Shown piece after piece: positions 1,319 through 22,829 of a stretch of 64,000 nt of DNA. This DNA comes from Candidatus Sphingobacterium stercorigallinarum. Lineage in GTDB: Bacteria > Bacteroidota > Bacteroidia > Sphingobacteriales > Sphingobacteriaceae. The translations under genes and the position numbers were made by a program. Every line of letters begins with the position of its first letter. The first letter of the stretch is position 1. The notes under the pieces were generated by a model that searched no databases, was not told the DNA's origin, and was given only the letters and a program-made list of their open reading frames with translations. Where the stretch lies: positions 900 through 64,899 of the forward strand of contig DXCW01000163.1 in the NCBI GenBank assembly GCA_019115805.1. The letters run 5' to 3'.

Positions 1319-2458
1319 TTACATCTTTAAGTATTCATTAAATGGCATTAAGACTTCCCGTAGCTTGACTTTATCTCTGAAGTTCCTAGCGATATTATAG
1401 GCAGTTTTCGTATAAGACGACATACCATCGTAATTATAAACATGGATCTTTTTACAGTATTTATTTTCAAACAGCATATTTAGGAGGGTTCGATCAGTGA
1501 TACTGCATGAATGTCCCATTACATATATTTCATAAGGTCCGAGTGCTGTGAACCCAAGCAAATCTTGATAGGACTGGTTGCGGAAATAGTGAAAAGATTT
1601 CATACATTTTAGCCACTCATCAGAGTACTTACTTTCTATTATTGAATAGAATTCATTTTGCTCGTCACCAATGCCAAAAACCACGTCATTATAGTTGTCT
1701 ATTGTTCCGTGTATTGGAATTATTTCTAATGAAGATAGCTTATCTCTATATCTCGACATTAGCAGATTTCGAAGATTCCATTGAAACGTTGTATAGTTAA
1801 AGTTGAGGAAAATTGCTGCTGGTCTGGAATCACCTTTATCTTTCAAATCCAATCGATCGAATGGGAAGTTAAACCAATTTGAAGTGCGTTCAATATCGGG
1901 CTGATTTTGTGTCTTCAAATAATTCACCAAATTTATTTTAAGACAATCGACTGATTGGTTAATCTGTTTTATTACGTCGGTTTGTTCTTGAAAAAGTCTA
2001 GAGCTTCGTATGTCGGGACCGTTTGTATTAGTTTTAACCTCGTGATGCGCCCTTTCAATCGATGAATAGATTTCGTGCTCTATTCCGTTCCATTCCGCAT
2101 CAATACACTCCGTTAAAATTTTATTGATAAATAGATTTTTTGCCTTTATGGCGATGTTGAATCCACTATAATGGGGATCAGGTAACTTTTTAACTATCAC
2201 TTCTGACAAAGTTCCTTTTTCAAAATCTGAATTTAGTGATTTAAAAGCTTCGGAATGTCGTCCCGGTGGGGAAAAGTATCTTGCAACCAACATCTCGATA
2301 CAGTTGTCCTCAAATTGATTTTTGCCGGATTCCAATGCCTGTTTTAAGCTTTCGTTGAGATACCATATAATAAAACTTCCATAGTCAGTCTTCAATTTAT
2401 GACCTAAATCGAAACCATTTCCGATAAGGAAGATCTTATTCCTACTTTCCTGTTCCAT
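1319..2458 (-). CDS. AbiH-family abortive infection protein
   Basis: N-terminus NKIFLIGNGFDLGHKLKTDYGSFI matches the hallmark AbiH (PF14253) start (IIGNGFDLahGLkTsY). C-terminal IYVMGHSCSITDRTLL resembles the second conserved AbiH block. Opposite strand to the phage late genes and visibly AT-rich (about 32% GC in a sampled 60-mer). Confidence 0.8.
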   Translation of the reverse strand: MEQESRNKIFLIGNGFDLGHKLKTDYGSFIIWYLNESLKQALESGKNQFEDNCIEMLVARYFSPPGRHSEAFKSLNSDFEKGTLSEVIVKKLPDPHYSGFNIAIKAKNLFINKILTECIDAEWNGIEHEIYSSIERAHHEVKTNTNGPDIRSSRLFQEQTDVIKQINQSVDCLKINLVNYLKTQNQPDIERTSNWFNFPFDRLDLKDKGDSRPAAIFLNFNYTTFQWNLRNLLMSRYRDKLSSLEIIPIHGTIDNYNDVVFGIGDEQNEFYSIIESKYSDEWLKCMKSFHYFRNQSYQDLLGFTALGPYEIYVMGHSCSITDRTLLNMLFENKYCKKIHVYNYDGMSSYTKTAYNIARNFRDKVKLREVLMPFNEYLKM

Positions 2459-2568: not shown

Positions 2569-2847
2569 ATGACCGTATACGAGGCGATATCAGAAATGCG
2601 AAAACTGTCCAAAGAGGGTAAATCGTTCAGTTTTACTTTCGTTTCCTATTCCCATTCTCGAGGTGAAAGCCATGGAATTGTGGAAGTTCCGGCCGCTAGA
2701 CTTCGTAAACGTGGTAAAACGGCACACAACCGATATGCCGAGCTTCAGGAAGAATATGTAAACGTCAATACGGGGGAAGCCAGGAGATTTTGGCACTGCT
2801 GCCTATTGAGCTTTAATGGTCAATCATTAAAATTTGCTGCTGAATGA
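2569..2847 (+). CDS. Small phage protein, unknown function
   Basis: 92-aa ORF whose stop overlaps the portal start (ATGA). No motif recognised. Confidence 0.4.
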   Translation: MTVYEAISEMRKLSKEGKSFSFTFVSYSHSRGESHGIVEVPAARLRKRGKTAHNRYAELQEEYVNVNTGEARRFWHCCLLSFNGQSLKFAAE

Positions 2848-4214
2848 AAACTAAAGAAATAACCGAAAATGCGAGAGCCGTCCACTTATCCGATGGATCG
2901 GTATATACGATTTCGATGAGTCATCAATTAGATGATCGGTGGTCAACACAGTTGTTTTCCTTCTCCAATTCTTGGGAATCAGATCCAGCCATTGTAATGG
3001 GCAAGCGAATAGTGCCTTATGGACACAATAACGACTTACCATCTGTGATCCGACGAATTATGGACAACTCGAATATCGGCCCCGGAATATTGCAAAGGAA
3101 AATCGGCTTGCAGTATGGAGAAGGCCCCTTCCTATATCGCGATCATTTTGATAGGGAAACGGGAAAAATTATACGTGTGCCGGTCCAACACGGGGAAATC
3201 AAGGCCTGGCTACAAACTTGGGACTTTGATCGGTATATTGAAATTGCCACAACGGAGTTTATGCATACCCAAGGCTTTTATACCCGATGGTACCGGAATA
3301 AAGGCCCGAGGATCGGTGGGAAAGGTAAAGTTGTCAAATTGGAACCTGTACTTAATACCTGGGCGCGTCTGGGTTGGCCGGATCACCCTGAGAAGCGATT
3401 GGAAAACGTCAAGAAAATCTATGTGGGTGATTTTGAGAACAATTGTCTGCACTCAGGAATATCAACTTACCATGCGTTTGATAAACGAGATCCGTTTCGC
3501 AACCCGGTATCCATGAGCTATCACAATCTATATAGTTTTGCAAGGGCATTCTATCCTGTTCCATCTTTTTTTGGAACATTGAAATGGTTGGCAACAGCTT
3601 CGGAGATTCCGGATATCATCAAGTACCTAACCGACAATGGAATCTCCGCGGCATTCCATATTCACTCTCCGCAAGGGTATTGGGATGACAAACGAGAAAA
3701 GTTGCTGCAACGGTTTCCGGAAGAAACTGAAGCGCAAATCGATAAGCGGGTGAGTGAGATTAAGGAACAGTTGTTTCGTTCCATTGCTAACGCGCTTGCA
3801 GGAAAGGAAAACGCGGGTAAGTTTATTGAGACAGTCGATTTCTACGATATTGATGGGAATTTATGCGAGTGGAAAATTGAGCCTATCGATCAGAAAATAA
3901 AAGACTTCATCGAAGCGCAGGTGAAGGTCTCAGAAAAGGCCGATTCTGCGGCCACTTCTGGGATGGGTTTGAACCCAGCACTCGCCAATTTAATCACCAA
4001 CAATTCGTTTTCTGGCGGATCGCAGCAATTATATGCTGCAAAGTTCCATGTGCTCACCGATGTTAACATTCCGGAACGCATCATATTTGAAGCAGTCAAC
4101 CAGGCCATTTCCATCAATTGGCCAGAAGAAAATGTGAAAATGGGATTCTATCGAAAGATTATTATGAAAGAAGAAGACGTGTCACCTGCAAATCGAGTTG
4201 CAGCTCAAGCCTAA
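2844..4214 (+). CDS. Phage portal protein (probable)
   Basis: 456 aa, follows the terminase. Size and the C-terminal Gly/Ser-rich segment (SGMGLNPALANLITNNSFSGGSQQLY) are typical of portals. Assigned from position and general resemblance only. Confidence 0.55.
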   Translation: MKTKEITENARAVHLSDGSVYTISMSHQLDDRWSTQLFSFSNSWESDPAIVMGKRIVPYGHNNDLPSVIRRIMDNSNIGPGILQRKIGLQYGEGPFLYRDHFDRETGKIIRVPVQHGEIKAWLQTWDFDRYIEIATTEFMHTQGFYTRWYRNKGPRIGGKGKVVKLEPVLNTWARLGWPDHPEKRLENVKKIYVGDFENNCLHSGISTYHAFDKRDPFRNPVSMSYHNLYSFARAFYPVPSFFGTLKWLATASEIPDIIKYLTDNGISAAFHIHSPQGYWDDKREKLLQRFPEETEAQIDKRVSEIKEQLFRSIANALAGKENAGKFIETVDFYDIDGNLCEWKIEPIDQKIKDFIEAQVKVSEKADSAATSGMGLNPALANLITNNSFSGGSQQLYAAKFHVLTDVNIPERIIFEAVNQAISINWPEENVKMGFYRKIIMKEEDVSPANRVAAQA

Positions 4215-5162: not shown

Positions 5163-6023
5163 ATGCATACTATTGAAATACCGCAAAAGGATCTCATAGT
5201 AGAGATTCCATCTGAATGGGACGAATGCACCTCTGAGCAGGTTCATTTTATTTTGGGTAAGGCGTTTCAAGTGATCAATGGAACATTATCTCTGGCCGAA
5301 TTTCGAATCCAAATTTTCGTGTTGTTTACGGGTTTGAAGTTCGGCCCAGGTTATCATATAAAACAACGTCTGGGCTACAATGCAGAAATAAATGAACGGA
5401 TATACCTTTTGTCAGAACAACTGTGCGGATGGATCTTCGAGAAAAATGAACAAGATGGTTTTGAATTATCCTATCAGACAATAACCAATTTCTTTCCCGT
5501 TTTATTGAATAAGTATCACGGTCCCGATGATTTACTGGCAGATATCACATTGGCGGAGTTTAAGCAAGCGATCGCCATGCTTAACGATTATTTCGAAACG
5601 AAAGAGGATCCAGATAGAGCTGATCTCTTTCTGAATTATTTCATAGCAACACTATACCGGCCGAAAGATAAAAGTGGAATCAAAGTGCCTTTCCATAGCT
5701 ATGTAGTAGAACCGACCTTGTTTGAGCGGGTTGAACCGTGGCGAAAGCAAGCAATTGCAATTTGGTTTTCTTACTGCATAAAATGCCTTCAGGAGGAAGA
5801 CCTGGTTATACAGGGTATTGATGTTAATTTCTCTGCACTATTCCCTTCAGGAAAGGCAAATCCAACTACACATAAAAGGGTGAACCTGGGATGGGCTGGT
5901 GTAGTCTTGGATATAGCTGAATCGGGTGTGTTTGGTGACGCTTCGAAAACCAGCCAAACCTTGTTGTACGATATATTGATTTTCCTTCTGAAAAAACATA
6001 ACGATCAATCTAAACAGAAATGA
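5163..6023 (+). CDS. Phage head-module protein, unknown function
   Basis: 286-aa ORF starting 3 nt after the previous stop. Same strand, tight packing. Confidence 0.4.
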   Translation: MHTIEIPQKDLIVEIPSEWDECTSEQVHFILGKAFQVINGTLSLAEFRIQIFVLFTGLKFGPGYHIKQRLGYNAEINERIYLLSEQLCGWIFEKNEQDGFELSYQTITNFFPVLLNKYHGPDDLLADITLAEFKQAIAMLNDYFETKEDPDRADLFLNYFIATLYRPKDKSGIKVPFHSYVVEPTLFERVEPWRKQAIAIWFSYCIKCLQEEDLVIQGIDVNFSALFPSGKANPTTHKRVNLGWAGVVLDIAESGVFGDASKTSQTLLYDILIFLLKKHNDQSKQK

Positions 6024-6454
6024 TAGGTATTAAAGAGTTTAACGAAATTTGTCAAGATATTGTCGAGCAAATAGGCATTAAAGGCCATGTAATATGCAGC
6101 ACAGAAGAGCAGGGCGCAAAGAAATTGAAGGATAAAGGGGATATCTGGCTTGTCGCTGTTTATCCGAATTACTCTTTCGATGGAGATCCAGATTCGTATC
6201 AAGATCGACACGAACTGATGTTCTTGGTGGTCACTCGGCAAATTGAGGGAAAAAGTGATGAGTTCGAATTGGAACAGTATTACAACACCCAACAAGCTAT
6301 GGTGAAGCTCAAACAATATTTATTTGGAGAGGGAGATCAGGTTGATGAGTTATGTAAGCTATTCCCTAATCTTAAAGTAAATTCTGTCGCCATTGAACCG
6401 GAGTACAATATCTTCGGCGGATATCTTGGCTGGTCCATGATCCTCGACGTCTGA
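6020..6454 (+). CDS. Phage head/neck-module protein, unknown function
   Basis: 144-aa ORF with an ATGA overlap with the upstream gene. Confidence 0.4.
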   Translation: MIGIKEFNEICQDIVEQIGIKGHVICSTEEQGAKKLKDKGDIWLVAVYPNYSFDGDPDSYQDRHELMFLVVTRQIEGKSDEFELEQYYNTQQAMVKLKQYLFGEGDQVDELCKLFPNLKVNSVAIEPEYNIFGGYLGWSMILDV

Positions 6455-6597
6455 AATTGTCCTACAATAATCTAAAAGCGTTGGCTAGCAAAGTGGAGGT
6501 TCAAGACAAAAGCTTCTTATTTAGAAATAGCGGTTCGAAATAGCACACGGTATTGAAATCTACTAACCAATTTAGGTTTTGATCCTGGGAGTATTGA

Positions 6598-6618
6598 AAA
6601 AATAATTTAAAATTATTT
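6598..6618. promoter_or_regulatory. 10-bp inverted repeat (aaaataattt a aaattatttt) in AT-rich leader upstream of the Panacea-like gene; possible operator next to a TTTG ... TATATTGT promoter-like pair
   Basis: Arms 6598-6607 and 6609-6618 are exact reverse complements. TTTG at 6633-6636 and TATATTGT at 6651-6658 loosely resemble the Bacteroidetes -33/-7 elements, with shorter spacing than consensus. AT-only sequence, so chance is plausible. Confidence 0.3.
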
Positions 6619-6754
6619 TAAAAATTTACAACTTTTGCAAAAATATGTGGTTATATTGTCAGACCTAGGTAGTGGACTTCATCGATTGGGGTAACATTTA
6701 TTATAGTGCTCAATCGCCTTTATCATATGAAATTCATATAGAAATACTGCATCT

Positions 6755-7282
6755 ATGTCAAAGATTGAAAGTTTTGAATATTTCTTAAAAGGGCTTGTTG
6801 GTTGGTTCTGTGATTTTTATACGATAGACAACGCCGATTTCAATGACCATCCTCAGAATAATCTAAGTAAGTTGAAGGTAATTAAGCTACATTTTTTTGC
6901 CTCAAGTACTTCAACGGATATGCTAGATTTATTTGATGACTTCCATGCGATGCCATATGGCCATGTGGAAAGCGAGATTTATCGATCTCTCTCAAAATTG
7001 CAGTTTGCCGAAGTGACGAACACCAAACTCGTAATTACCGATATCAAATCGTTTAATGAAGTTTCTGTCGGACAAAGTGAAGTTGTCGACAACTCTATAA
7101 GTACTTTGAAAGAACTCAATTCCCAGTTGATTTCGTTCTCACCATTTGATTTAGTGGAGCTTAGCCACAAATGGTTCTCATGGAGATATAACTTCGAAAT
7201 AGCCAAAAAGGATGGATCATTTTCCAGGCCAATCAGTAAAGAACTTATAAAAAAAGAAGAAAAATATTATAGCTTGTTTTAA
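6755..7282 (+). CDS. Panacea (DUF4065/SocA/GepA-like) domain protein, putative antitoxin
   Basis: LSKLKVIKLHFFASS ... FHAMPYGHVESEIY ... DLVELSHKWFSW parallels the Panacea domain pattern (LKLQKLLYy ... f.AwkyGPVvpevY ... tH...pW). 175 aa, AT-rich. Stop overlaps the start of the next gene (TAATG). Confidence 0.7.
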   Translation: MSKIESFEYFLKGLVGWFCDFYTIDNADFNDHPQNNLSKLKVIKLHFFASSTSTDMLDLFDDFHAMPYGHVESEIYRSLSKLQFAEVTNTKLVITDIKSFNEVSVGQSEVVDNSISTLKELNSQLISFSPFDLVELSHKWFSWRYNFEIAKKDGSFSRPISKELIKKEEKYYSLF

Positions 7283-9192
7283 TGAGTTCTCAATTTCATT
7301 TTAGTTCGAACACTTTAATCGAACTTTTAGAAGGCCAGCATTTCCAATCGACATGGCTGAAGAATAGTAAAGGAGAAGTTCCTAATCAATCAGACTCGGG
7401 ATTAGTAGCCAACACAATTATAGGGGCAGGTACGGAGATTGCCAAATTTTTTCAATTGTTGTTTTTGAGTGGGGAGTATTTGAATTTGTTAGATCACGAA
7501 GAAGAATCTTATTTTGACGAAATCGAAAAATACTTAAATGAGCATGGAAATAGTATAGAAGAGCTAGAAGAAGGCCCAGAAAAATATAAAATACAAGAGA
7601 TCTTTCGTGGAAATATTATTCTTCCATTTACGAATCTAATCCGACCCTTATCTACGTATTTATTAAGGGACGTTCGATCCCAGTTAAATCTAGAATACAC
7701 GACTGATATATTTCGTGGAGAGCGTTCCTGGTACGACAGTACAAAAGTGGACGATGTGTTGCACCACCATTTTATTTCGTTTCAAATAGTAATTCGTATC
7801 ATTCGTTCAGAGCACTTCGGCTACTCGTTAACTAATGACTTGATTAGGAATCTGGTTATTTATTATGGGGAATCTCGAGCTATTTCTATTGATACAGTCC
7901 TTAAGGAGGCAATATCGGTAAAAGTTGATTTTCTCCTTAAAAAGCTTCTTTATCGGGCAGAAAATGATCCGCAAGATTCGTTGGAACCTCGAATGATTTA
8001 TTCATTCGATCGACAGGAGGACAAAACAGTTGATTTGGAGTCAATTGTAATTCACGAATCTTTGTCAGAATGGGAGCGTTTGATTAAAGTTCATTACGGC
8101 TTGTTAAAGAATTTCAAATCGGAACAGCGAAAGCGAAGGAAAGTTATCGAGAAGAAATCAAAAGAAGATTATGTGACATTAGATTTCCATGGCTTAATCA
8201 AGATATATAAGGACGATTCAAAAAATTTCCAGCTTGCGAATGAACTCTATCAATCATTTTCTGCCCGACAGTCCAATGGTTCGACATTCAATAAATATAG
8301 TAATGAAGTGTCTGGTTCTTATCTGTTCAATAATATAGTTTCGCTTGAGTGTGAAATCGGTGACTTTACTGTCGATAAAGCTAAAGAGCTTTTCAGCAAA
8401 ATAAAGAATAAACAGAATGAGGATGAGATTAGGAACTATTTTCCATGGGAGAAATTAGCTACGAAATTGAACGATATTCTAAGTGGGCTTTCGCGCGAAC
8501 TGGTCGAAAATGATAAACTCAAAAGTTTCAATGGTTTTCTAGATGTTTTTGCAGCAACGCTTAAAAAACTCGAAGAGGCATATCGATGGAGTCAGAATAA
8601 AAAGCTAGTACCTATTCAACCTAATTTTGCGGAGTGCCAATCTCCATACATTATCAAACTAGATAACTACCCGGATATTAAGTTATTTTTCTTTTCGTCG
8701 TTTATGCTGCCACTGGACTATAAAAGAGTTAGTTCAAATATCACTGAACTGGAAGAGAAATATAAAAGTTTCACTTCTTTGAAGACTGTATACAGTAGGT
8801 TAATATCAGTTGTGTCGGAGATGAAGGATGTAACCGAGAAAATGCGAAAACAAGAGCGAAGGTCAATTGAAATATTAGCCATCTTCTCAGCGGTAGCATT
8901 GTTTTCGGTTGGAAGTATACAAATATTCGGTGTTGAAAGTATTCAGGGTGATCCTCATGTCTACTATCGATTTATATTAGCTTATGGGTATTCATTAGCA
9001 TTATTCGTATTGCTGATTTGGATTATAACCCGGGAAAATTTGAGAAAGGTATTTTGGTTTCATTGGACAATCGTAATTTTAGTTTTCCTAGGTACTTTAA
9101 TCGCGGTTGGATATGCTAATGGAGCATCGATTTTCAAATTCATCAAAGATGATATACTGACGCTTTTCAATTCATCAATCAATCACAAATAA
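7282..9192 (+). CDS. 636-aa protein of unknown family: large soluble N-terminal region, coiled coil, three C-terminal TM helices; candidate toxin/effector partner of the Panacea protein
   Basis: Uninterrupted ORF coupled to the upstream gene. Hydrophobic segments are IEILAIFSAVALFSVGSIQIF, YYRFILAYGYSLALFVLLIWII and VFWFHWTIVILVFLGTLIAVGYA (about aa 529-612, nt 8866-9117). They are preceded by the charged helix EEKYKSF...MKDVTEKMRKQERR. No catalytic motif recognised. About 30-40% GC in sampled 60-mers. Confidence 0.6.
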   Translation: MSSQFHFSSNTLIELLEGQHFQSTWLKNSKGEVPNQSDSGLVANTIIGAGTEIAKFFQLLFLSGEYLNLLDHEEESYFDEIEKYLNEHGNSIEELEEGPEKYKIQEIFRGNIILPFTNLIRPLSTYLLRDVRSQLNLEYTTDIFRGERSWYDSTKVDDVLHHHFISFQIVIRIIRSEHFGYSLTNDLIRNLVIYYGESRAISIDTVLKEAISVKVDFLLKKLLYRAENDPQDSLEPRMIYSFDRQEDKTVDLESIVIHESLSEWERLIKVHYGLLKNFKSEQRKRRKVIEKKSKEDYVTLDFHGLIKIYKDDSKNFQLANELYQSFSARQSNGSTFNKYSNEVSGSYLFNNIVSLECEIGDFTVDKAKELFSKIKNKQNEDEIRNYFPWEKLATKLNDILSGLSRELVENDKLKSFNGFLDVFAATLKKLEEAYRWSQNKKLVPIQPNFAECQSPYIIKLDNYPDIKLFFFSSFMLPLDYKRVSSNITELEEKYKSFTSLKTVYSRLISVVSEMKDVTEKMRKQERRSIEILAIFSAVALFSVGSIQIFGVESIQGDPHVYYRFILAYGYSLALFVLLIWIITRENLRKVFWFHWTIVILVFLGTLIAVGYANGASIFKFIKDDILTLFNSSINHK

Positions 9193-9398
9193 GTCAGCAA
9201 ACGTCAACTTAATTTAATTAATCACTGAATTTTCATAATAGTCAAAATGAAATATTTAGTAACTATCTGACTGGTAGGGTAATAGTGCGTGAATGGTATT
9301 TGTTCAATATTTTTGATCATTGGGTTCACCGGCCCGCCCTGTTCCTTTTTTGCAATTGCACCCCGGCGCCGGCCCCCAGAAATATGACATGCCACTGT

Positions 9399-9434
9399 AA
9401 AAACAGCCTTAAATCACGTTTAAAGGCTGTTTTT
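9399..9434 (+). terminator. Rho-independent terminator closing the two-gene insert
   Basis: aaaaacagccttaaa / tttaaaggctgttttt hairpin with one bulge and loop tcacg. Followed by a T-run. Confidence 0.55.
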
Positions 9435-9571
9435 GATTATGGATCAGACTACCTATGCCTATCCCATTCGGCCTCAACTAGCCACTGCTGAAATTTCCTG
9501 TATCCCTGCCGAATATCGTGTCCTTTAACAGGCTTTGATCTACTATTAGATTCGTCCAATAACTCTGAATC

Positions 9572-9964
9572 ATGGACGCTATTAAAGGAAAATTCATTGA
9601 GCATACACTGCGGGAAGAGGGCAAACGATTCATACGGAACCAAGGTGCTGCTATTAAAACTGAACTTAGAAACCGGACAGGTAATCTCCTAAATAACCGA
9701 AAATTCAAAATAATCGGAAGTGGCGCGCAAGCTACACTGCATATTGACGTGCCCGATTACAATAGATTCTTAGACATTCGAAGTAAGTTTCGAAGGCACA
9801 AGCGAGGTCAGAGCAAGCGCTCCAGTGGTAAAGGTCTGCGGATTTACAATCGGTTTGTGATGGGACATTACCAGGGCATTGCTGAACGTCTGATGTATGG
9901 ATATACCCAATCCACCATCGATATGATTCGTGAAAAGTGGAAAGGAGGTTTCGATGGCCAGTAA
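9572..9964 (+). CDS. Basic phage protein, unknown function (immediately upstream of tape measure)
   Basis: 130-aa ORF rich in K/R. Its 3' end overlaps the likely tape measure ATG (9954) by 11 nt. Confidence 0.4.
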   Translation: MDAIKGKFIEHTLREEGKRFIRNQGAAIKTELRNRTGNLLNNRKFKIIGSGAQATLHIDVPDYNRFLDIRSKFRRHKRGQSKRSSGKGLRIYNRFVMGHYQGIAERLMYGYTQSTIDMIREKWKGGFDGQ

Positions 9965-12900
9965 ACTGAAAGCCGAAACGTTGTCACTCGATGTGGTGGT
10001 TAATTCAAACGAGGCACAGAAGCGATTTAATGATCTTGGTCGAGAAATCACTGATACTTCAGCACGTGTCAAGGAATTAAAAGCTGAACAAGCATTGCTC
10101 GCTAAAGAAGGAGGGAAGAACACTGTAGAGTATAAAGCGCTGTCTAAGGAGATCCGCGAAAACCAAACTCGAGTCAAGGCATTAAAAAACGAACAGGGTG
10201 AGCTTATTAAAAGCTTAGACCTTGAACAGAAAACAATGTCTCAGCTGAAGCGGGAGCTTAGGGATCTGGCAAGACTGAGGGATAATAGTATTCCTGGTTC
10301 GGAACAGTACAACGAATACGCGAAACAAGTAGAAAAAGTATCCGGAAGATTAAGAGAGTTGCGTATTGGTGCCGATAATACAGGTAGTTCGATTGAACGA
10401 CTAGGTGGCAAGTTTCGAGGATATGTCACAACGGTTACGGCTATAGCGGCATCGTTAACAGGTCTGACTCTTGGCGTGCGAAAGGCAATCACCGAATTCA
10501 CACAATTTGATGATTTGCTAGCCGACGTGATGAAGACAACAAACCTTAGCAGAGAATCTGTTGCAGAGCTTAATGAGGAGCTGCGAAAGATTGAAACTCG
10601 TACATCTCAGGAAGATCTCCTGGGGCTATCGCGAATCGCTGGTAAACTCGGGTATACTGAGATATCGGACATCACTGAATTTGTAAGAGCGAATAACCAG
10701 ATTGTCGTCGCGCTTAATGAAGACCTGGGAGGGAATGTCGAAGAGACCGTAAATAAGATCGGTAAACTGGTGGATGTGTTTAATCTTCGAGACTTGTATT
10801 CTACTGAAGATGCATTTCTCAAAGTCGGATCCGCCCTGAATGAATTGGGGATGGCGTCGACAGCCAACGAAGGCTACATGGTAGAATTCACCAGAAGAAT
10901 GGCGGGTGTCGCTCCTCTAGCGGGTATTAGCATTGACCAAATATTGGGCTTAGGTGCAGCGTTGGATCAGCTAGGCCAGACAGAGGAAGTATCGTCCACT
11001 GCCCTCAGCAAACTGTTCTTGCAAATGGCTAAGGATGCGGAAACGTATAGCAAATATGCTGGAATGCAAGTGACCGAGTTTAAAGACTTGCTTGAGAAAG
11101 ATTTCATGACAGCTTTCACCCGTGTATTAGAAGGTGTACAGAGTAGCTCGAATGGAATCAATGAACTTGCTGCAACACTTGGCGACCTCGGCCAGGATGG
11201 GGGACGTGTCATAGGCGTTATTGGCTCGTTAGCGGGCAACGTTGATGTACTTAAATCGTCAATGGATCTAGCGAATCAATCGATGATTGAGGGGGTATCG
11301 ATAACAGAAGAATACGAAATTAAAAATGAGACGGCTGCCGCGAAACTTGAGATCGCCAAGAAACAACTTAAGGAGTTGTGGATCCAATTAGGCGAGCAAC
11401 TTTGGCCAGTAATGACAACAGGGCTTGGGTTATTTAGCCAATTTATTACAGCCATCAGTAAGACCATTGCATTTATCTCCGAAAATCGAAAAGTTATAAC
11501 GGTATTGGTCGTTGCGATTACATCGTACACCGTGGCCGTAAATTTGGCAACTGCAGCAACTTTTGTGTTAACTCGAGCAAAAGCTGCTGCCACAGTAGCA
11601 CAAAATCTTTGGAACATTGCACTTCGAGCCAATCCTCTCGGATTAGTTATTGGCTTAGTAAGCTCTCTAGCAGCGGGATTATACGTATTACGGGATCGGA
11701 CTGATTCGGCAACGACTGCACAGAACCATCTGAATGAAGCAATCGATAAGTCTAAACTCGAATATGAGAAGGAACGCTATGCTATTGAACAAAGCATGGA
11801 AGCTGCGTTGGATAAAACGAGGGCGGATGATCAGAGACTGGCTGCTGTTAATAGACTGCGAGAGGTAATGCCGGACGTTCTCAAGGGATACTCAGATGAG
11901 CAAATTATGGCAGGGCAAGCAACAGCAGCGATTAAGGAGCAAATCAAGCAAATTATTCGACTCTCTACTGTAAAGGCGTATAGCAACAAACTTGACGAAC
12001 TGAGTGCACGTCGTGCGGATCTCCAAGATCAACTAGAGCGGGGCTATTCTGGGTCCACGATATCCGAGAGATTGACTTTAACGCCGGATGTTTTTTTCAA
12101 AGGGGATTGGGCACAAGCATATGAGGACGCAGTCCAAAAGCAAATCGATGGGATAGAGGCTGCACGGGAATTGGTCGGTAATAAAATGCTTGAAGAACAA
12201 GTAAAGCTCAATAAAGCAATTCTTGGCGCTGGAAAGAATGGTGATGATGATGAAAATCCGGATCCAGTGACCGTTACTCCCGGGGGCGGATCAACAAATA
12301 ACGCTTTTCGGAAGGAACTGGATGCTGCCGAGAAGCATTACCAGGATCTTCTTCAGCAGAAGGGTTTGTTTCGCCGAGATCTTTCTGAACTAGATAAGAA
12401 GCAGCTGGAGGAACTATCGATGTATGAATCCCAGTATCAATCAAAAGTTGATGGCGTTCACCGTAAACATGGGGAAACCTTAAAAACTATAAATCAAACC
12501 GCGAGTCAGGAACTAAAACGCCGGGAAAAATCAGAAGCGAGTGCTGTTGATTCCATTTTGAGAAAAAAGCAATCGGAAGCTGAAGGGGAGCGCGCTGCTT
12601 TCGAGGACCGTTTGAAGAATGCCGGATTGTTTGGTGTAAAGCGAGAAGGATTAACGGAGAGGCAACTATCTGCTTTGGTGGCATTGGAGCGAGAGCATCA
12701 AGAACGACTTGATCAAATTGATGCAGATGCATTAACTAAGGAGATCGACCGCAGGTTAAGCGAGAATAAGGATGCATTAACGGACCTCCAGTTAAAACAC
12801 CAGCAAGAACTTGCTGAGATAGAGACATTTGATCAGGCGAGGATAGTTTTGTCTGAGAACCTGTCAACTCGAGAGCTGTCCAAGATCAAAACATTGTCGG

Positions 12901-14126
12901 ATGCGAAGAAAGAGATCCAGCGTCAGCAGCAGAAGGTAGAACAAGACATGCTTCGAAATCAGCTTGAAGATATGATGGGGATTCTTGAACATGCAATGGG
13001 CACTGGTGAATTCGAAGGAATTGTACTGGCCGATGATATTTTCTCTGAAAAGGAAATGGAAGTTTTGAAAGGGCAGTTTAGGAAAATCAGAGAATTGCTA
13101 TTAAAGATCAATCCAGAGGAAGAAGAGGACAGTAAACGCGATCGGGAGCGAAAGCGGGTGGATGTTTTAGGAATGTCAGTCGAGGATTGGGACATGCTCT
13201 TTGATCAGCTTGCCACGACTGAGCAACGCGTACAAAGTGTGATGGGGGCACTAAATGCAGCCACGCAGCTTTGGGGGCAATACAACAAGATGGTTGCAAA
13301 CCGGGAGAATGCGCAGCTTCAGAAGGATCAAGCTGCGAATGACAAGAAAAAAGAGAATCTCCAGCGGAGACTGGATTCCGGAATCATTTCCCAGGAGAAT
13401 TACAACGCGCAGGTTGAAAAGATGGATCGTGAGATGGACCGACAGAAAGCCAAAGTAGCAAGAGATCAAGCTATTCGGGATCGGAACGTATCTCTCATGT
13501 CAGCTATTGTCAATACGGCTAAAGCTGTAACTGGAGTCTTACCTAATTTTGTGTTGGCTGCCATAGTAGGGGCAATGGGAGCACTCCAGATTGGAACAAT
13601 CCGAGCGACGCCGCTCCCGGAGATACCAGGGGCGGAATCGGGAGGTCAACTTCTTGAGGTGATTCGAAGCCAGGACAACAAGAAATTCAATGCCAAGGCG
13701 GATCCCAGAAAAAGAGGATATGTAGATTCGCCAACTGTTTTGGTCGGAGAGAGCGGTCGGGAATGGGTAGCGAGCAATGATGCAGTCGGTAATCCCCAGG
13801 TTCGACCGATTCTTGACGTACTGGATACCGCTCAAAAGAATGGCTCTATAAGCACGCTAACCCTATCAGACATCATTTCCAATACACTCGGGTCGCGCAT
13901 GCCGGGACGGCAATCGGGCGGTACTTTATCGGGAACCGGTCGCATTACTGATTCAACGAATGACGGATTGTTACTGGAAGTTTTTCTAAAGCGAAACATT
14001 GAAGCTATCAGCAGTTTGGAATCGAAGCTTACCAATCTAAAGGCAGAAGTAACGCTGTTAGGTAAAAACGGATTCCTGGAGAAGAAAAAAGAACTAGACC
14101 AACAACAGAGTAACGGTAATTTATAA
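9954..14126 (+). CDS. Tail tape measure protein
   Basis: About 1390 aa with long coiled-coil stretches and a central hydrophobic/TM cluster (TVLVVAITSYTVAVNLATAATFVL, PLGLVIGLVSSLAAGLYVL). TP901-type tape-measure-like block around FTQFDDLLADVMKTTNLS. The ATG at 9954 is preceded by aaaggagg. Confidence 0.85.
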   Translation: MASKLKAETLSLDVVVNSNEAQKRFNDLGREITDTSARVKELKAEQALLAKEGGKNTVEYKALSKEIRENQTRVKALKNEQGELIKSLDLEQKTMSQLKRELRDLARLRDNSIPGSEQYNEYAKQVEKVSGRLRELRIGADNTGSSIERLGGKFRGYVTTVTAIAASLTGLTLGVRKAITEFTQFDDLLADVMKTTNLSRESVAELNEELRKIETRTSQEDLLGLSRIAGKLGYTEISDITEFVRANNQIVVALNEDLGGNVEETVNKIGKLVDVFNLRDLYSTEDAFLKVGSALNELGMASTANEGYMVEFTRRMAGVAPLAGISIDQILGLGAALDQLGQTEEVSSTALSKLFLQMAKDAETYSKYAGMQVTEFKDLLEKDFMTAFTRVLEGVQSSSNGINELAATLGDLGQDGGRVIGVIGSLAGNVDVLKSSMDLANQSMIEGVSITEEYEIKNETAAAKLEIAKKQLKELWIQLGEQLWPVMTTGLGLFSQFITAISKTIAFISENRKVITVLVVAITSYTVAVNLATAATFVLTRAKAAATVAQNLWNIALRANPLGLVIGLVSSLAAGLYVLRDRTDSATTAQNHLNEAIDKSKLEYEKERYAIEQSMEAALDKTRADDQRLAAVNRLREVMPDVLKGYSDEQIMAGQATAAIKEQIKQIIRLSTVKAYSNKLDELSARRADLQDQLERGYSGSTISERLTLTPDVFFKGDWAQAYEDAVQKQIDGIEAARELVGNKMLEEQVKLNKAILGAGKNGDDDENPDPVTVTPGGGSTNNAFRKELDAAEKHYQDLLQQKGLFRRDLSELDKKQLEELSMYESQYQSKVDGVHRKHGETLKTINQTASQELKRREKSEASAVDSILRKKQSEAEGERAAFEDRLKNAGLFGVKREGLTERQLSALVALEREHQERLDQIDADALTKEIDRRLSENKDALTDLQLKHQQELAEIETFDQARIVLSENLSTRELSKIKTLSDAKKEIQRQQQKVEQDMLRNQLEDMMGILEHAMGTGEFEGIVLADDIFSEKEMEVLKGQFRKIRELLLKINPEEEEDSKRDRERKRVDVLGMSVEDWDMLFDQLATTEQRVQSVMGALNAATQLWGQYNKMVANRENAQLQKDQAANDKKKENLQRRLDSGIISQENYNAQVEKMDREMDRQKAKVARDQAIRDRNVSLMSAIVNTAKAVTGVLPNFVLAAIVGAMGALQIGTIRATPLPEIPGAESGGQLLEVIRSQDNKKFNAKADPRKRGYVDSPTVLVGESGREWVASNDAVGNPQVRPILDVLDTAQKNGSISTLTLSDIISNTLGSRMPGRQSGGTLSGTGRITDSTNDGLLLEVFLKRNIEAISSLESKLTNLKAEVTLLGKNGFLEKKKELDQQQSNGNL

Positions 14127-21351: not shown

Positions 21352-22617
21352 CTAAAACTTTATTTTATAATGAGTCCTGAAGTCTTCTTGAATTTGTAAA
21401 GTTTTAAAATAATTGTCTTCATCATCAACATGTGCATATTTCTCGGTCGTTGCAATTTTAGAATGCCCGAGTAGCTTTTTAAGTAGATAAATATCCCCCA
21501 CATATTTCATGATCAAGTAACCAAAGGTGTGCCGCGCAACATGGGAGGTGATTGTTTTTCCGATACTGGCCATTCTACTCAGGTCTTTCAGGCTTCTGTT
21601 GTATTCTTGGCTTGTGGGCAAATCGAACAGTTTCCCGCGCGTTTCATTGACGAAAAGTTTCGCTAATGGTATTAATGGGATAGTGATCGTTTTTGGCCGC
21701 CGGTCTGAATTTTTACGCATAGTGAACTTCATAAAGTTGTCAGAAAGCATCCAAGAATATTCGGAATTGTAGAGGTCCGATATCCGGATTCCAGTGAAGC
21801 AGCAAAAGAGGAACGCTTTCAGAACATTGAAGTGGGTAGGCGATAAGGCTTTTTGATCCATCTGTTGGATCAGGCGCACAATCTCGTCTTTATTTAAATA
21901 GGTCGATTCGCTCTCCTGGTACGGATTAGGAAAATCAATGACGGATTGTGGCACGTAAACCTGTATTTCCTCACTGGCCACCCGAAAAAACGATTTGAGA
22001 TCCTTAAGCCTTGTCCATACTGTATTATGAGCCAATGGCTTCCCCGATGTGTTCTTTTGCTTTTTCAGCCAGGCTCTGAACTTCTGCATAAACTTTACGT
22101 CGACCTGATCCCATCGAAGGCCGGGTTCAAACTTTTCTAAGGCAATAATTGTGGAGCCATAATTCTTCCATGTTTGTTCAGAGATGGCTCTCAATTTGAA
22201 TAATTCTTTTCGTCGCTTTTTGAAGTAACCGATAACCGATTTGGCCGGATCGAAGTAGAAAAGCTCACGTTTAACGATATCAATACTTAGATATCGACCG
22301 GAAAGCCTATACAATTTTGCAATTTCATTCAGTTTCGCCCGTTCTGACATGATCATCATGTTGAAATCACTAGCGTCGGGATCTTTTTTTTGACGAGGCA
22401 ACAGTATGCTCTCCTCAAGATCGATTAAATCTGCGGGCCATTCTAGATTTAAAGGGATATAAGTCCTTGAGCTGTTTCCAGGAGTTGAGATGTAGACCTG
22501 AAGATACAACGCTTGATGGCCATTTTTTTTCAAGCGATTCTTATGGACGTGAAGCTTAGTCGAAAATTTAAACATGGCGTTTCCAATACTATTTATTTGA
22601 TTCGTCCGTAAAATCAT
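21352..22617 (-). CDS. int: Tyrosine recombinase / phage integrase (Bacteroidetes type)
   Basis: 421 aa. C-terminal catalytic block is HVARHTFGYLIMKYVGDIYLLKKLLGHSKIATTEKYAHV (H-x-x-R ... H ... Y), with upstream FTGIRISDL. N-terminal arm-binding-like region. Adjacent to the tRNA. Confidence 0.9.
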   Translation of the reverse strand: MILRTNQINSIGNAMFKFSTKLHVHKNRLKKNGHQALYLQVYISTPGNSSRTYIPLNLEWPADLIDLEESILLPRQKKDPDASDFNMMIMSERAKLNEIAKLYRLSGRYLSIDIVKRELFYFDPAKSVIGYFKKRRKELFKLRAISEQTWKNYGSTIIALEKFEPGLRWDQVDVKFMQKFRAWLKKQKNTSGKPLAHNTVWTRLKDLKSFFRVASEEIQVYVPQSVIDFPNPYQESESTYLNKDEIVRLIQQMDQKALSPTHFNVLKAFLFCCFTGIRISDLYNSEYSWMLSDNFMKFTMRKNSDRRPKTITIPLIPLAKLFVNETRGKLFDLPTSQEYNRSLKDLSRMASIGKTITSHVARHTFGYLIMKYVGDIYLLKKLLGHSKIATTEKYAHVDDEDNYFKTLQIQEDFRTHYKIKF

Positions 22618-22742: not shown

Positions 22743-22747
22743 CAAAG

Positions 22748-22829
22748 TACCCAGGGCCGGGATCGAACCGGCACGAATTGCTTCATTGGTGTTTGAGACC
22801 AACGCGTCTACCAATTCCGCCACCTGGGC
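22748..22829 (-). tRNA. tRNA-Leu (anticodon CAA)
   Basis: Reverse complement GCCCAGGTGGCGGAATTGGTAGACGCGTTGGTCTCAAACACCAATGAAGCAATTCGTGCCGGTTCGATCCCGGCCCTGGGTA. It shows a 7-bp acceptor stem (one G-U), a D-arm typical of tRNA-Leu, anticodon loop CU-CAA-AC, a long variable arm and T-loop GGTTCGATCC. No encoded CCA. Confidence 0.9.

Follow-up and report, generated by a model that had tools for sequence, protein, structure and literature searches.

What does a self-contained block of two genes do between the head and tail genes of a prophage? The question is raised by a stretch of 64,000 nucleotides of Candidatus Sphingobacterium stercorigallinarum (contig DXCW01000163.1, positions 900 to 64,899 of the forward strand), referred to below as the window. 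The block, called here the cassette (6455-9436), contains two co-directional open reading frames (ORFs) on the plus strand. Gene 1 (6755-7282, 175 amino acids) encodes a standalone Panacea/DUF4065 protein of the PanA type, and gene 2 (7282-9192, 636 amino acids) encodes a membrane-anchored protein. Pairs of this kind are known to let bacteria and phages harbour toxic effectors without harm. A first-pass annotation of the window had described the two genes, joined by TAATG, and had proposed that they form a new toxin-antitoxin (TA) or abortive-infection (Abi) system. Both reading frames were confirmed. By homology, gene 2 belongs to a cluster of putative toxins, T15, that was predicted in 2022. 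The cassette is a new prophage-borne member of this class and not a new system, because the gene 2 family is already listed as T15. In the best-supported reading, which we consider moderately probable, the cassette would be a Panacea-based TA/Abi moron whose membrane effector is neutralised by PanA.

A predicted class of Panacea pairs

The pT14/T15 cluster appears in Dataset S1 of Kurata et al. 2022 (PNAS 119:e2102212119, PMC8832971) with 13 entries, all of them from Bacteroidetes. In these entries PanA is without an N-terminal domain and the antitoxin gene precedes the toxin gene. Five of the pT14/T15 genomes coincide with loci that were found independently in the present analysis, four of them with identical intergenic gaps. 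An exact look-up identified the partner proteins WP_090985861.1, WP_054719396.1 and WP_055097636.1 as listed T15 accessions, together with WP_090985859.1, an orthologue of gene 1 and a PanA entry of the survey, which was based on a hidden Markov model (HMM) of DUF4065. The gene 2 profile aligns end-to-end with the three partners (E = 2.5e-53, 5.4e-48 and 2.6e-24, respectively). The earlier view of gene 2 as a new Panacea-associated toxin had to be given up, since its family, with accessions matched, is already pT14/T15.

In the survey of Kurata et al. 2022, the partner had to lie within 100 nt, the architecture had to be shared by two or more species, and pairs within a longer conserved operon did not qualify. 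The two genes of the cassette overlap by 1 nt, and the pair occurs in at least five classes of Bacteroidota and is not part of a longer conserved operon. The cassette has the same two protein families as the pT14/T15 entries, the same order with PanA first, short gaps and the same phylum. It differs from them in that none of the 13 entries is a virus record, whereas the present copy sits in a prophage late operon. Furthermore, the family is shown here to be far larger (470 representatives), strictly paired and co-diverging, with three transmembrane (TM) helices and no known fold. T15 is not mentioned in the main text of Kurata et al. 2022, its accessions do not occur in the supplementary files of NetFlax 2023, and no experimental follow-up on T15 was found in the literature searched.

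The Panacea protein

The first-pass annotation assigned gene 1 to the Panacea/DUF4065 family from sequence patterns, and the assignment held, although the single sequence stays below the Pfam threshold. Gene 1 matches SocA_Panacea (PF13274) over model positions 23-112 of 113 with E = 1.1e-4, and its 23.5 bits are a borderline miss of the gathering threshold of 25.7 bits. Six of nine close relatives match the same model, likewise below threshold. This cutoff is the threshold of one model and not a definition of homology. The best curated sequence match is NCBIfam SocA_antitoxin (E = 1.4e-7), in which gene 1 reaches 31.4 bits, far under the equivalog cutoff of 190. The match to phrog_1281, a family of unknown function, has a value of 1e-11. 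The profile of the gene 1 family retrieves 492 proteins, and those annotated with PF13274 or named SocA or Panacea are found at about 1e-38 to 1e-55. A protein identical to gene 1 is named 'DUF4065 domain-containing' by NCBI.

The AlphaFold2 model of gene 1 has a pLDDT of 95.3. Its sole real fold match in the PDB is chains B/D of 7YK3, a DarTG complex (probability 1.00, TM-score 0.55); a profile search of the PDB sequences returned nothing. The C-terminal domain of DarG in 7YK3, which binds DarT, is reported to share homology with DUF4065 proteins (PMC13621843, 2026). Family profile, fold and literature therefore concur that gene 1 encodes a divergent Panacea/DUF4065 protein, and at the family level the assignment can be regarded as secure.

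The signature of Panacea is the GPV motif, which is critical for neutralisation (Kurata et al. 2022). In an alignment of 26 sequences, its apparent counterpart in the present subfamily is PYGHVE, residues 67-72 of gene 1 (6953-6970, plus strand). P67, G69, V71 and E72 are invariant in the alignment, and Y68 and H70 are conserved in at least 90%. A histidine hence stands in place of the GPV proline in at least 90% of the subfamily; the orthologue of M. fragile has PYGPVE. The Panacea-like strings that had been cited for gene 1 are invariant or nearly so across its family.

The membrane protein

Gene 2 matches no recognised family, in agreement with the first-pass annotation. Its single sequence finds none in Pfam, PHROG, PADLOC or NCBIfam, where only sub-threshold noise from the TM region (LtrA, transporters) was obtained. 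A Pfam scan of 39 diverse family members gave no recurrent family, and the gene 2 profile found nothing below E = 0.1 among the PDB sequences. The AlphaFold2 model, built with 12 sequences, has a pLDDT of 81.9 and a pTM of 0.74, with most residues above 85 up to residue 500. Foldseek searches with this model gave best E values of 0.11 (PDB) and 0.02 (BFVD), with TM-scores of at most 0.24. Gene 2 is an effector candidate of about 640 residues, membrane-anchored, with a confidently predicted fold that has no match in the libraries searched.

The protein is comprised of an N-terminal all-alpha domain and a C-terminal membrane region. The former (residues 1-530; 7282-8871, plus strand) is modelled as an all-alpha body of about 510 residues, and a 43-residue helix, 480-522, runs from it into the first TM helix, TM1. 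The N-terminal domain is predicted to be cytoplasmic because a K/R-rich segment, residues 505-528 with seven K/R, precedes TM1. The membrane region (8872-9108, plus strand) contains three TM helices at residues 531-549, 564-582 and 591-609, as had been noticed from the sequence. By hydropathy analysis, 35 of 40 family members have three TM segments at the C-terminal end.

Within gene 2, residues 511-540 are the most conserved and the N-terminal 300 residues the least. The stretch with the strongest conservation across the family covers the juxtamembrane helix and TM1 and reads KMRKQERRS-x-EILAIFSAVALFS-x-GSIQIF. E530, F535, A537 and F541 are conserved to at least 85% over 39 sequences.

An exhaustive HMM search yielded 470 representatives of the family at 50% identity, 373 of them with E values of 1e-10 or lower and nearly all of 590-690 amino acids. 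A word-indexed search had returned 12 homologues, all from Sphingobacteriaceae. The notion of a family of only 12 proteins was a sensitivity artefact of that search, as the neighbourhood analysis and the exhaustive search made clear.

Pairing across Bacteroidota

In all eight contexts of gene 2 homologues that were inspected, a gene 1 homologue of 172-178 amino acids lies immediately upstream, and the surroundings are different each time. Three further contexts of close PanA relatives have the same arrangement (11 of 11 close-relative contexts in all). A wider scan, in which the gene 1 alignment was compared with one genome per GTDB species, produced 46 loci from Sphingobacteriia, Flavobacteriia, Cytophagia, Chitinophagia, Bacteroidia and Saprospiria. 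At 45 of these 46 loci a gene 2 homologue follows directly downstream on the same strand, so that the adjacency to Panacea genes is recurrent, as the TA interpretation of the first-pass annotation had anticipated. The sole exception is a locus that ends at a contig edge about 350 nt past PanA.

At 38 of the scan loci a complete ORF of 588-723 amino acids on the same strand follows PanA, typically after a gap of -26 to +19 nt; one complete pair (L040) has a gap of 203 nt. These 38 partner ORFs match the gene 2 profile over most or all of their length, with E values from 1e-15 to below 1e-280. The other loci comprise contig ends, one truncated copy and copies disrupted by insertion sequence (IS) elements that still hold a gene 2 homologue. 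No recurrent third gene was found among the 161 nearest neighbours of the pair. The two proteins diverge together (Mantel r = 0.74), and none of 2000 permutations reached as high a value. The arrangement seen in the cassette is far beyond chance, because the pair recurs at every assessable locus elsewhere.

The promiscuity for which Panacea domains had been invoked in the first-pass annotation does not describe this subfamily, which in the sampled cellular genomes is strictly paired with a single family of partners. The T15 partner class is widespread in Bacteroidota, a phylum with understudied defence systems to which gut and oral genera such as Segatella, Phocaeicola, Alistipes and Capnocytophaga belong. 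As far as it was sampled, this large family is confined to the phylum. One locus lies on a contig that was binned as Clostridiales (L048 741-1910); its partner has 389 amino acids, matches only the N-terminal part of family members (to about residue 390) and is without the TM region; another locus (L046) is binned as Bosea. These may be mis-binned Bacteroidota contigs or transfers beyond the phylum.

Viral sequences gave a different picture. Only five contigs of IMG/VR carry a relative of gene 1, and none of them shows a gene 2 homologue. Further IMG/VR scans with a neighbouring phage protein and with a close gene 2 alignment found nothing, with patterns that were narrow. Two contigs of 146 kb and 43 kb (L062 8001-8561 and L063 ~7990-8543, respectively) encode PanA relatives of 35-36% identity without a T15 gene; one stands alone and the other is followed by an unrelated ORF of 182 amino acids without TM helices. 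H138, invariant in the cellular PanA set, is Q or R in these two proteins. Carriage by phages is therefore not typical of the pair, and the tie of the subfamily to one partner is not absolute. It may be speculated that the two viral PanA proteins are orphan antitoxins used in counter-defence or products of partner swapping.

In one strain, Segatella copri HDE04, IS elements have disrupted the partner gene in two copies of the pair, and PanA is intact. The partner is cut at about codon 88 by an IS with a DDE transposase (L058 6434-12435 and L055 6434-6697), and in L058 two more DDE-transposase ORFs lie between the remaining fragments of the partner gene. The sister strain S. copri HDD05 (L054) has an intact pair with a partner of 588 amino acids. 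Disruption of the partner alone is consistent with a costly gene and is no proof of it. Just downstream of the degraded pair in L055 (9319-11605) are an AAA_15/AAA_21 ATPase and a DUF4435 protein, an arrangement reminiscent of AriA/AriB in PARIS.

Insertion into the late operon

The window begins within the prophage. A terminase-like gene (37-1314), the portal gene (2844-4214) and further late genes up to 6454 precede the cassette; a small late gene (9572-9964), the tape-measure gene (9930-14126; PF10145, E = 2.8e-15) and tail genes follow it. The flanks are late phage genes with the tape measure downstream, as had been annotated, the tape-measure gene itself starting at 9930. The gene order is common to Flavobacterium phage 6H (L060) and Bacteroides phage BT-TP2 (L059). 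Both share with the prophage the terminase, the portal, the two genes after the portal and the tape-measure gene; the immediate flanking genes of the cassette have detectable homologues in 6H only.

The left boundary is the last conserved late gene before the cassette (6020-6454, plus strand, 144 amino acids, GC 0.41), a homologue of 6H gp09 (tblastn match to L060 15224-15517, E = 4e-5) with a weak match to phrog_23945. The right boundary is the first conserved late gene after it (9572-9964, plus strand, 130 amino acids), a homologue of 6H gp07 (L060 15802-16131, E = 2e-8; phrog_25557, E = 8e-7). In phage 6H, gp09 and gp07 are about 250 bp apart with one tiny ORF between them, and in the window their homologues are 3.1 kb apart, which identifies the cassette as an insertion. 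The cassette is absent from the syntenic position in both 6H and BT-TP2, so gene 2 is not a conserved virion protein of the related phages. No direct repeats that could be insertion scars were found around it.

The GC content of the cassette, 35.4%, is foreign to its surroundings (42.8-44.3% in the prophage structural genes and 44.0% on the host side of the window), and the low-GC block described in the first-pass annotation is real. Together with the spacing of the flanks in 6H, it bears out the description of the cassette as a self-contained, horizontally acquired moron in the late operon. The pair was also found in two unrelated prophages, near an integrase in one (L006) and at the prophage edge in the other (L068).

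Genomic company of the pair

The settings of the pair include integrases, IS elements and three different prophages, and the surroundings differ at every locus. Some loci are plainly metabolic or of the SusC/SusD type, and most lie outside prophages. In the set of 161 nearest neighbours, PADLOC gave at least 17 strong matches, which include type I and type III restriction-modification, PrrC, Tmn (twice), ShosA and a DRT-type VirE-PriCT2 protein, besides the PDC candidates PDC-M11, M30, M41, S05, S10 and S24. Pfam families in the neighbourhood include McrBC, YobI-ATPase, ResIII/DEAD helicases, integrases and DUF3871. Single contexts contain CTD1/MComp1/SMC with nSTAND3, Mrr-CTD12/MC8/DUF2326 and SEFIR/TIR, and in one context an SLFN-type helicase is accompanied by IS21 and three integrases.

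Proposed mode of action

The following scheme would account for these findings. The cassette would be a PanA-PanT module that belongs to the predicted T15 class, was acquired horizontally and entered, between two late genes, a prophage integrated at a tRNA-Leu gene. It probably has its own promoter and terminator, so a lysogen could express it. PanA, the product of gene 1, would bind the gene 2 product and keep it inactive. By analogy with a characterised Panacea protein, the contact site would be the conserved part of the gene 2 protein formed by its stalk and juxtamembrane segment, where PanA would hold the three-TM module inactive. When PanA is lost or displaced, for example by phage infection, the freed membrane region would compromise the inner membrane. 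Growth of the cell would stop, and the outcome would be abortive infection or post-segregational killing. The variable N-terminal half of gene 2 may serve as a sensing or regulatory domain. The Panacea homology and fold of gene 1, the strict and co-diverging pairing, the operon and membrane architecture and the insertion into the late operon are findings of the analysis; the binding of the two proteins, the toxicity of gene 2, its membrane target, the trigger and the defence role are inferred.

The closest precedents are validated membrane PanAT systems, namely the PanT toxins of E. coli STEC O31, Bartonella apis and Helicobacter sp. and PanT D11 of B. choladocola. In these, as in the cassette, a standalone Panacea protein is encoded beside a partner with C-terminal TM helices. 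Depolarisation or permeabilisation of the membrane is the effect of these TM-containing PanT toxins (Kurata et al.), and tested PanA proteins form complexes with their toxins and need neither ClpXP nor Lon (Kurata et al. 2022). Standalone Panacea proteins neutralise directly, and in one case the antitoxin contacts a short helix before the TM region of the toxin (Ernits et al.). The best-conserved part of gene 2, the juxtamembrane helix with TM1, corresponds to this contact region, which fits the proposed scheme. The cassette differs from the precedents in size: many of the predicted toxins with TM helices are small peptides (Kurata et al.), whereas gene 2 has an additional cytoplasmic domain of some 510 residues. 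No relation of gene 2 to the validated membrane PanT toxins was detected in sequence or fold.

DarTG offers a second comparison. The C-terminal domain of DarG in 7YK3 is a direct toxin-binding inhibitor and the only solved structure that resembles the gene 1 model. DarG also has a macrodomain, however, its toxin is a DNA ADP-ribosyltransferase, and it has no match to gene 1 at the sequence level. The RexAB system of phage lambda is a two-gene exclusion system of a prophage in which a multi-TM protein collapses the membrane potential on superinfection. As a functional analogy, it shares with the cassette a prophage-encoded combination of one cytoplasmic and one multi-TM protein. There is no homology, the Rex membrane component is a small protein, and for the cassette activation by phage would be an assumption.

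Several observations weigh against a PanA-neutralised toxic effector. No recognisable toxic or enzymatic motif and no plausible catalytic constellation is conserved in the gene 2 family, and the residues that are conserved phylum-wide are mostly aromatic, aliphatic or structural. The TM region, to which the scheme ascribes the damage, is modelled at moderate confidence (pLDDT ~50-67). Typical type II toxins are far smaller than the gene 2 product. PanA is more conserved than its partner, with mean pairwise identities of 39% and 22%, respectively, in 39 pairs (L013-L056 and the window). In the usual TA pattern it is the toxin that is the more conserved of the two. The higher conservation of PanA may reflect an additional constrained interaction of this protein. 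Neither cassette protein matches any model of PADLOC-DB v2.0.0 at E values up to 1, so this check, suggested in the first-pass annotation, brought no support. The enrichment of defence genes near the pair was seen without a matched background control and is suggestive, and the disruption of the partner gene by IS elements concerns one strain only and could be neutral. Finally, Dataset S1 gives T15 the flag notest/noTest (Kurata et al. 2022, PMC8832971), and eight predicted PanT proteins were non-toxic in E. coli (Kurata et al. 2022).

Should the gene 2 product be toxic and defensive, it would represent a new effector architecture for abortive infection. The Panacea lineage that guards it would then, within cellular genomes, be faithful to a single family of partners, in contrast to the 'hyperpromiscuous' picture of these antitoxins. 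Should it not be toxic, the pair would set a limit to guilt-by-association for Panacea neighbours. A more specific form of the proposed scheme takes T15 as a new-fold membrane sensor-effector of an Abi system particular to Bacteroidota, in which the N-terminal half senses, the stalk and TM region collapse the membrane, and PanA is the gatekeeper; the PanA relatives of the two IMG/VR contigs (L062, L063) would be counter-defence mimics. We put this form forward tentatively, as a possibility and not as an expectation.

Alternative explanations

Four other explanations were considered. The most viable is a membrane defence that does not kill: gene 2 would be a superinfection-exclusion or signalling protein, blocking for instance the entry of DNA, and PanA would be a cytoplasmic sensor or regulator, with no self-toxicity. 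Carriage by a prophage, a large cytoplasmic domain tied to the membrane, the lack of a toxin-like motif, the defence-rich neighbourhoods and the greater conservation of PanA would all suit such a protein, and Panacea is possibly mainly a sensor (Ernits et al.). However, the standalone Panacea proteins tested so far directly neutralise toxic partners, the S. copri partner gene was inactivated by IS elements with PanA kept, and most loci lie outside prophages. On balance we regard a non-lethal defence as rather unlikely.

The pair might also be neither toxin nor defence, but serve a conserved accessory role at the membrane, for example in maintaining the envelope or regulating transport, and merely travel on mobile elements. 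The loci among ordinary metabolic or SusC/SusD genes point in this direction, as do the absence of a recognisable toxic domain and the eight predicted PanT proteins that were non-toxic in E. coli. An accessory function is hard to reconcile with the patchy, strain-variable distribution, with neighbours that change at every locus and are frequently defence genes, IS elements and integrases, or with the foreign GC content. Panacea domains are, besides, otherwise tied to TA-like loci. This explanation appears unlikely.

A type VI mechanism would retain the toxic partner and change the mode of its control. In SocAB of Caulobacter crescentus, a type VI TA system, SocA is a Panacea-domain antitoxin that works as a ClpXP adaptor, and its NCBIfam model is the best curated match of gene 1 (E = 1.4e-7). 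By this model PanA would deliver the gene 2 protein to a housekeeping protease, e.g. ClpXP, for continuous degradation. SocB, however, is a soluble replication inhibitor of cluster T10, unrelated to the three-TM partner in T15, and the score of gene 1, about 31 bits against an equivalog cutoff of 190, places it outside the SocA equivalogs. The PanA proteins tested did not need ClpXP or Lon, and a three-TM membrane protein would probably be an unusual substrate of ClpXP. Delivery to a protease is accordingly quite improbable.

That the two genes are structural, assembly or lysis genes of the late operon, for example a holin-like protein or a tail-assembly factor, as their strand, their place between head and tail genes and the TM helices of gene 2 might suggest, is effectively refuted by synteny and distribution: they are missing from the syntenic position in 6H and BT-TP2, gene 2 has no PHROG family, most homologues lie outside prophages and the pair sits elsewhere in two other prophages, none of the five IMG/VR contigs with a gene 1 relative has a gene 2 homologue, and the cassette has a foreign GC content and its own hairpin.

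Layout and signals of the cassette

The two genes are joined at TTTTAATGAG, where the TAA stop of gene 1 and the ATG start of gene 2 share one base (TAATG). Gene 1 is preceded by an AT-rich non-coding leader of 300 nt (6455-6754, plus strand, GC 0.313), in accordance with the leader of the same length reported in the first-pass annotation. The leader contains no ORF of 40 amino acids or more, and a comparison of ten cassettes revealed no conserved operator or other shared sequence in it. A scan of 6300-9700 with Rfam found no RNA family.

In Bacteroidetes, the consensus of the -7 promoter box is TAnnTTTG. The leader contains AACTTTTG (6630-6637, plus strand), a 7/8 match to this consensus 118 nt 5' of the gene 1 ATG, which is a possible -7 box of a cassette promoter. 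Exact TAnnTTTG boxes occur in five related cassettes, 94-160 nt upstream of the PanA gene. Matches to sigma-70-type promoters were no commoner than in shuffled sequences; the sigma-70 consensus does not apply to Bacteroidota anyway.

Gene 2 is followed by a non-coding spacer of 206 nt (9193-9398) and a hairpin (inverted repeat I3; 9399-9434, plus strand), whose arms contain an A-run and a U-run. The strength of this hairpin, claimed from its sequence, was borne out by folding. The arms of 15 nt each (9399-9413 and 9420-9434) are 93% complementary and enclose a loop of 6 nt, and the region folds with -18.9 kcal/mol (z = -3.6 against shuffles). The hairpin is likely an intrinsic, perhaps bidirectional, terminator at the end of the cassette. 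Consensus-based terminator prediction passed over it, since the U-run lies within the stem. Within the spacer, a GC-rich patch (9359-9379, CACCCCGGCGCCGGCCCCCAG), atypical for the genome and occurring once in the window, has no significant fold (z = -0.5).

Other cargo of the prophage and its relatives

The right end of the prophage and its attachment site are likely marked by a tyrosine integrase gene (21352-22617, minus strand) that adjoins tRNA-Leu(caa) (22747-22829). A second insert of low GC content (35.4%) lies between the terminase-like and portal genes (1319-2458, minus strand) and codes for a member of the AbiH family of abortive-infection proteins (PF14253; E = 3.7e-24, with a score that exceeds the curated cutoff). 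The structural module of the prophage therefore carries two defence-type morons. With a clean insertion, predicted regulatory signals of its own and an additional Abi gene carried by the prophage, this copy of the T15 pair is a well-delimited natural example of its class.

In phages 6H and BT-TP2 the corresponding gaps are occupied by a SymE-type toxin, a 'maintenance system killer' and a DUF4160/DUF2442 pair. The gap between terminase and portal and the stretch before the tape-measure gene look like hot spots for morons or other cargo in this phage lineage. In the Pedobacter nototheniae prophage that has the pair at its edge, a Lactamase_B protein (L068 237-971) matches the Anti-Pycsar Apyc1 family; if the match is correct, a candidate defence cassette and a candidate anti-defence gene would be combined in one prophage.

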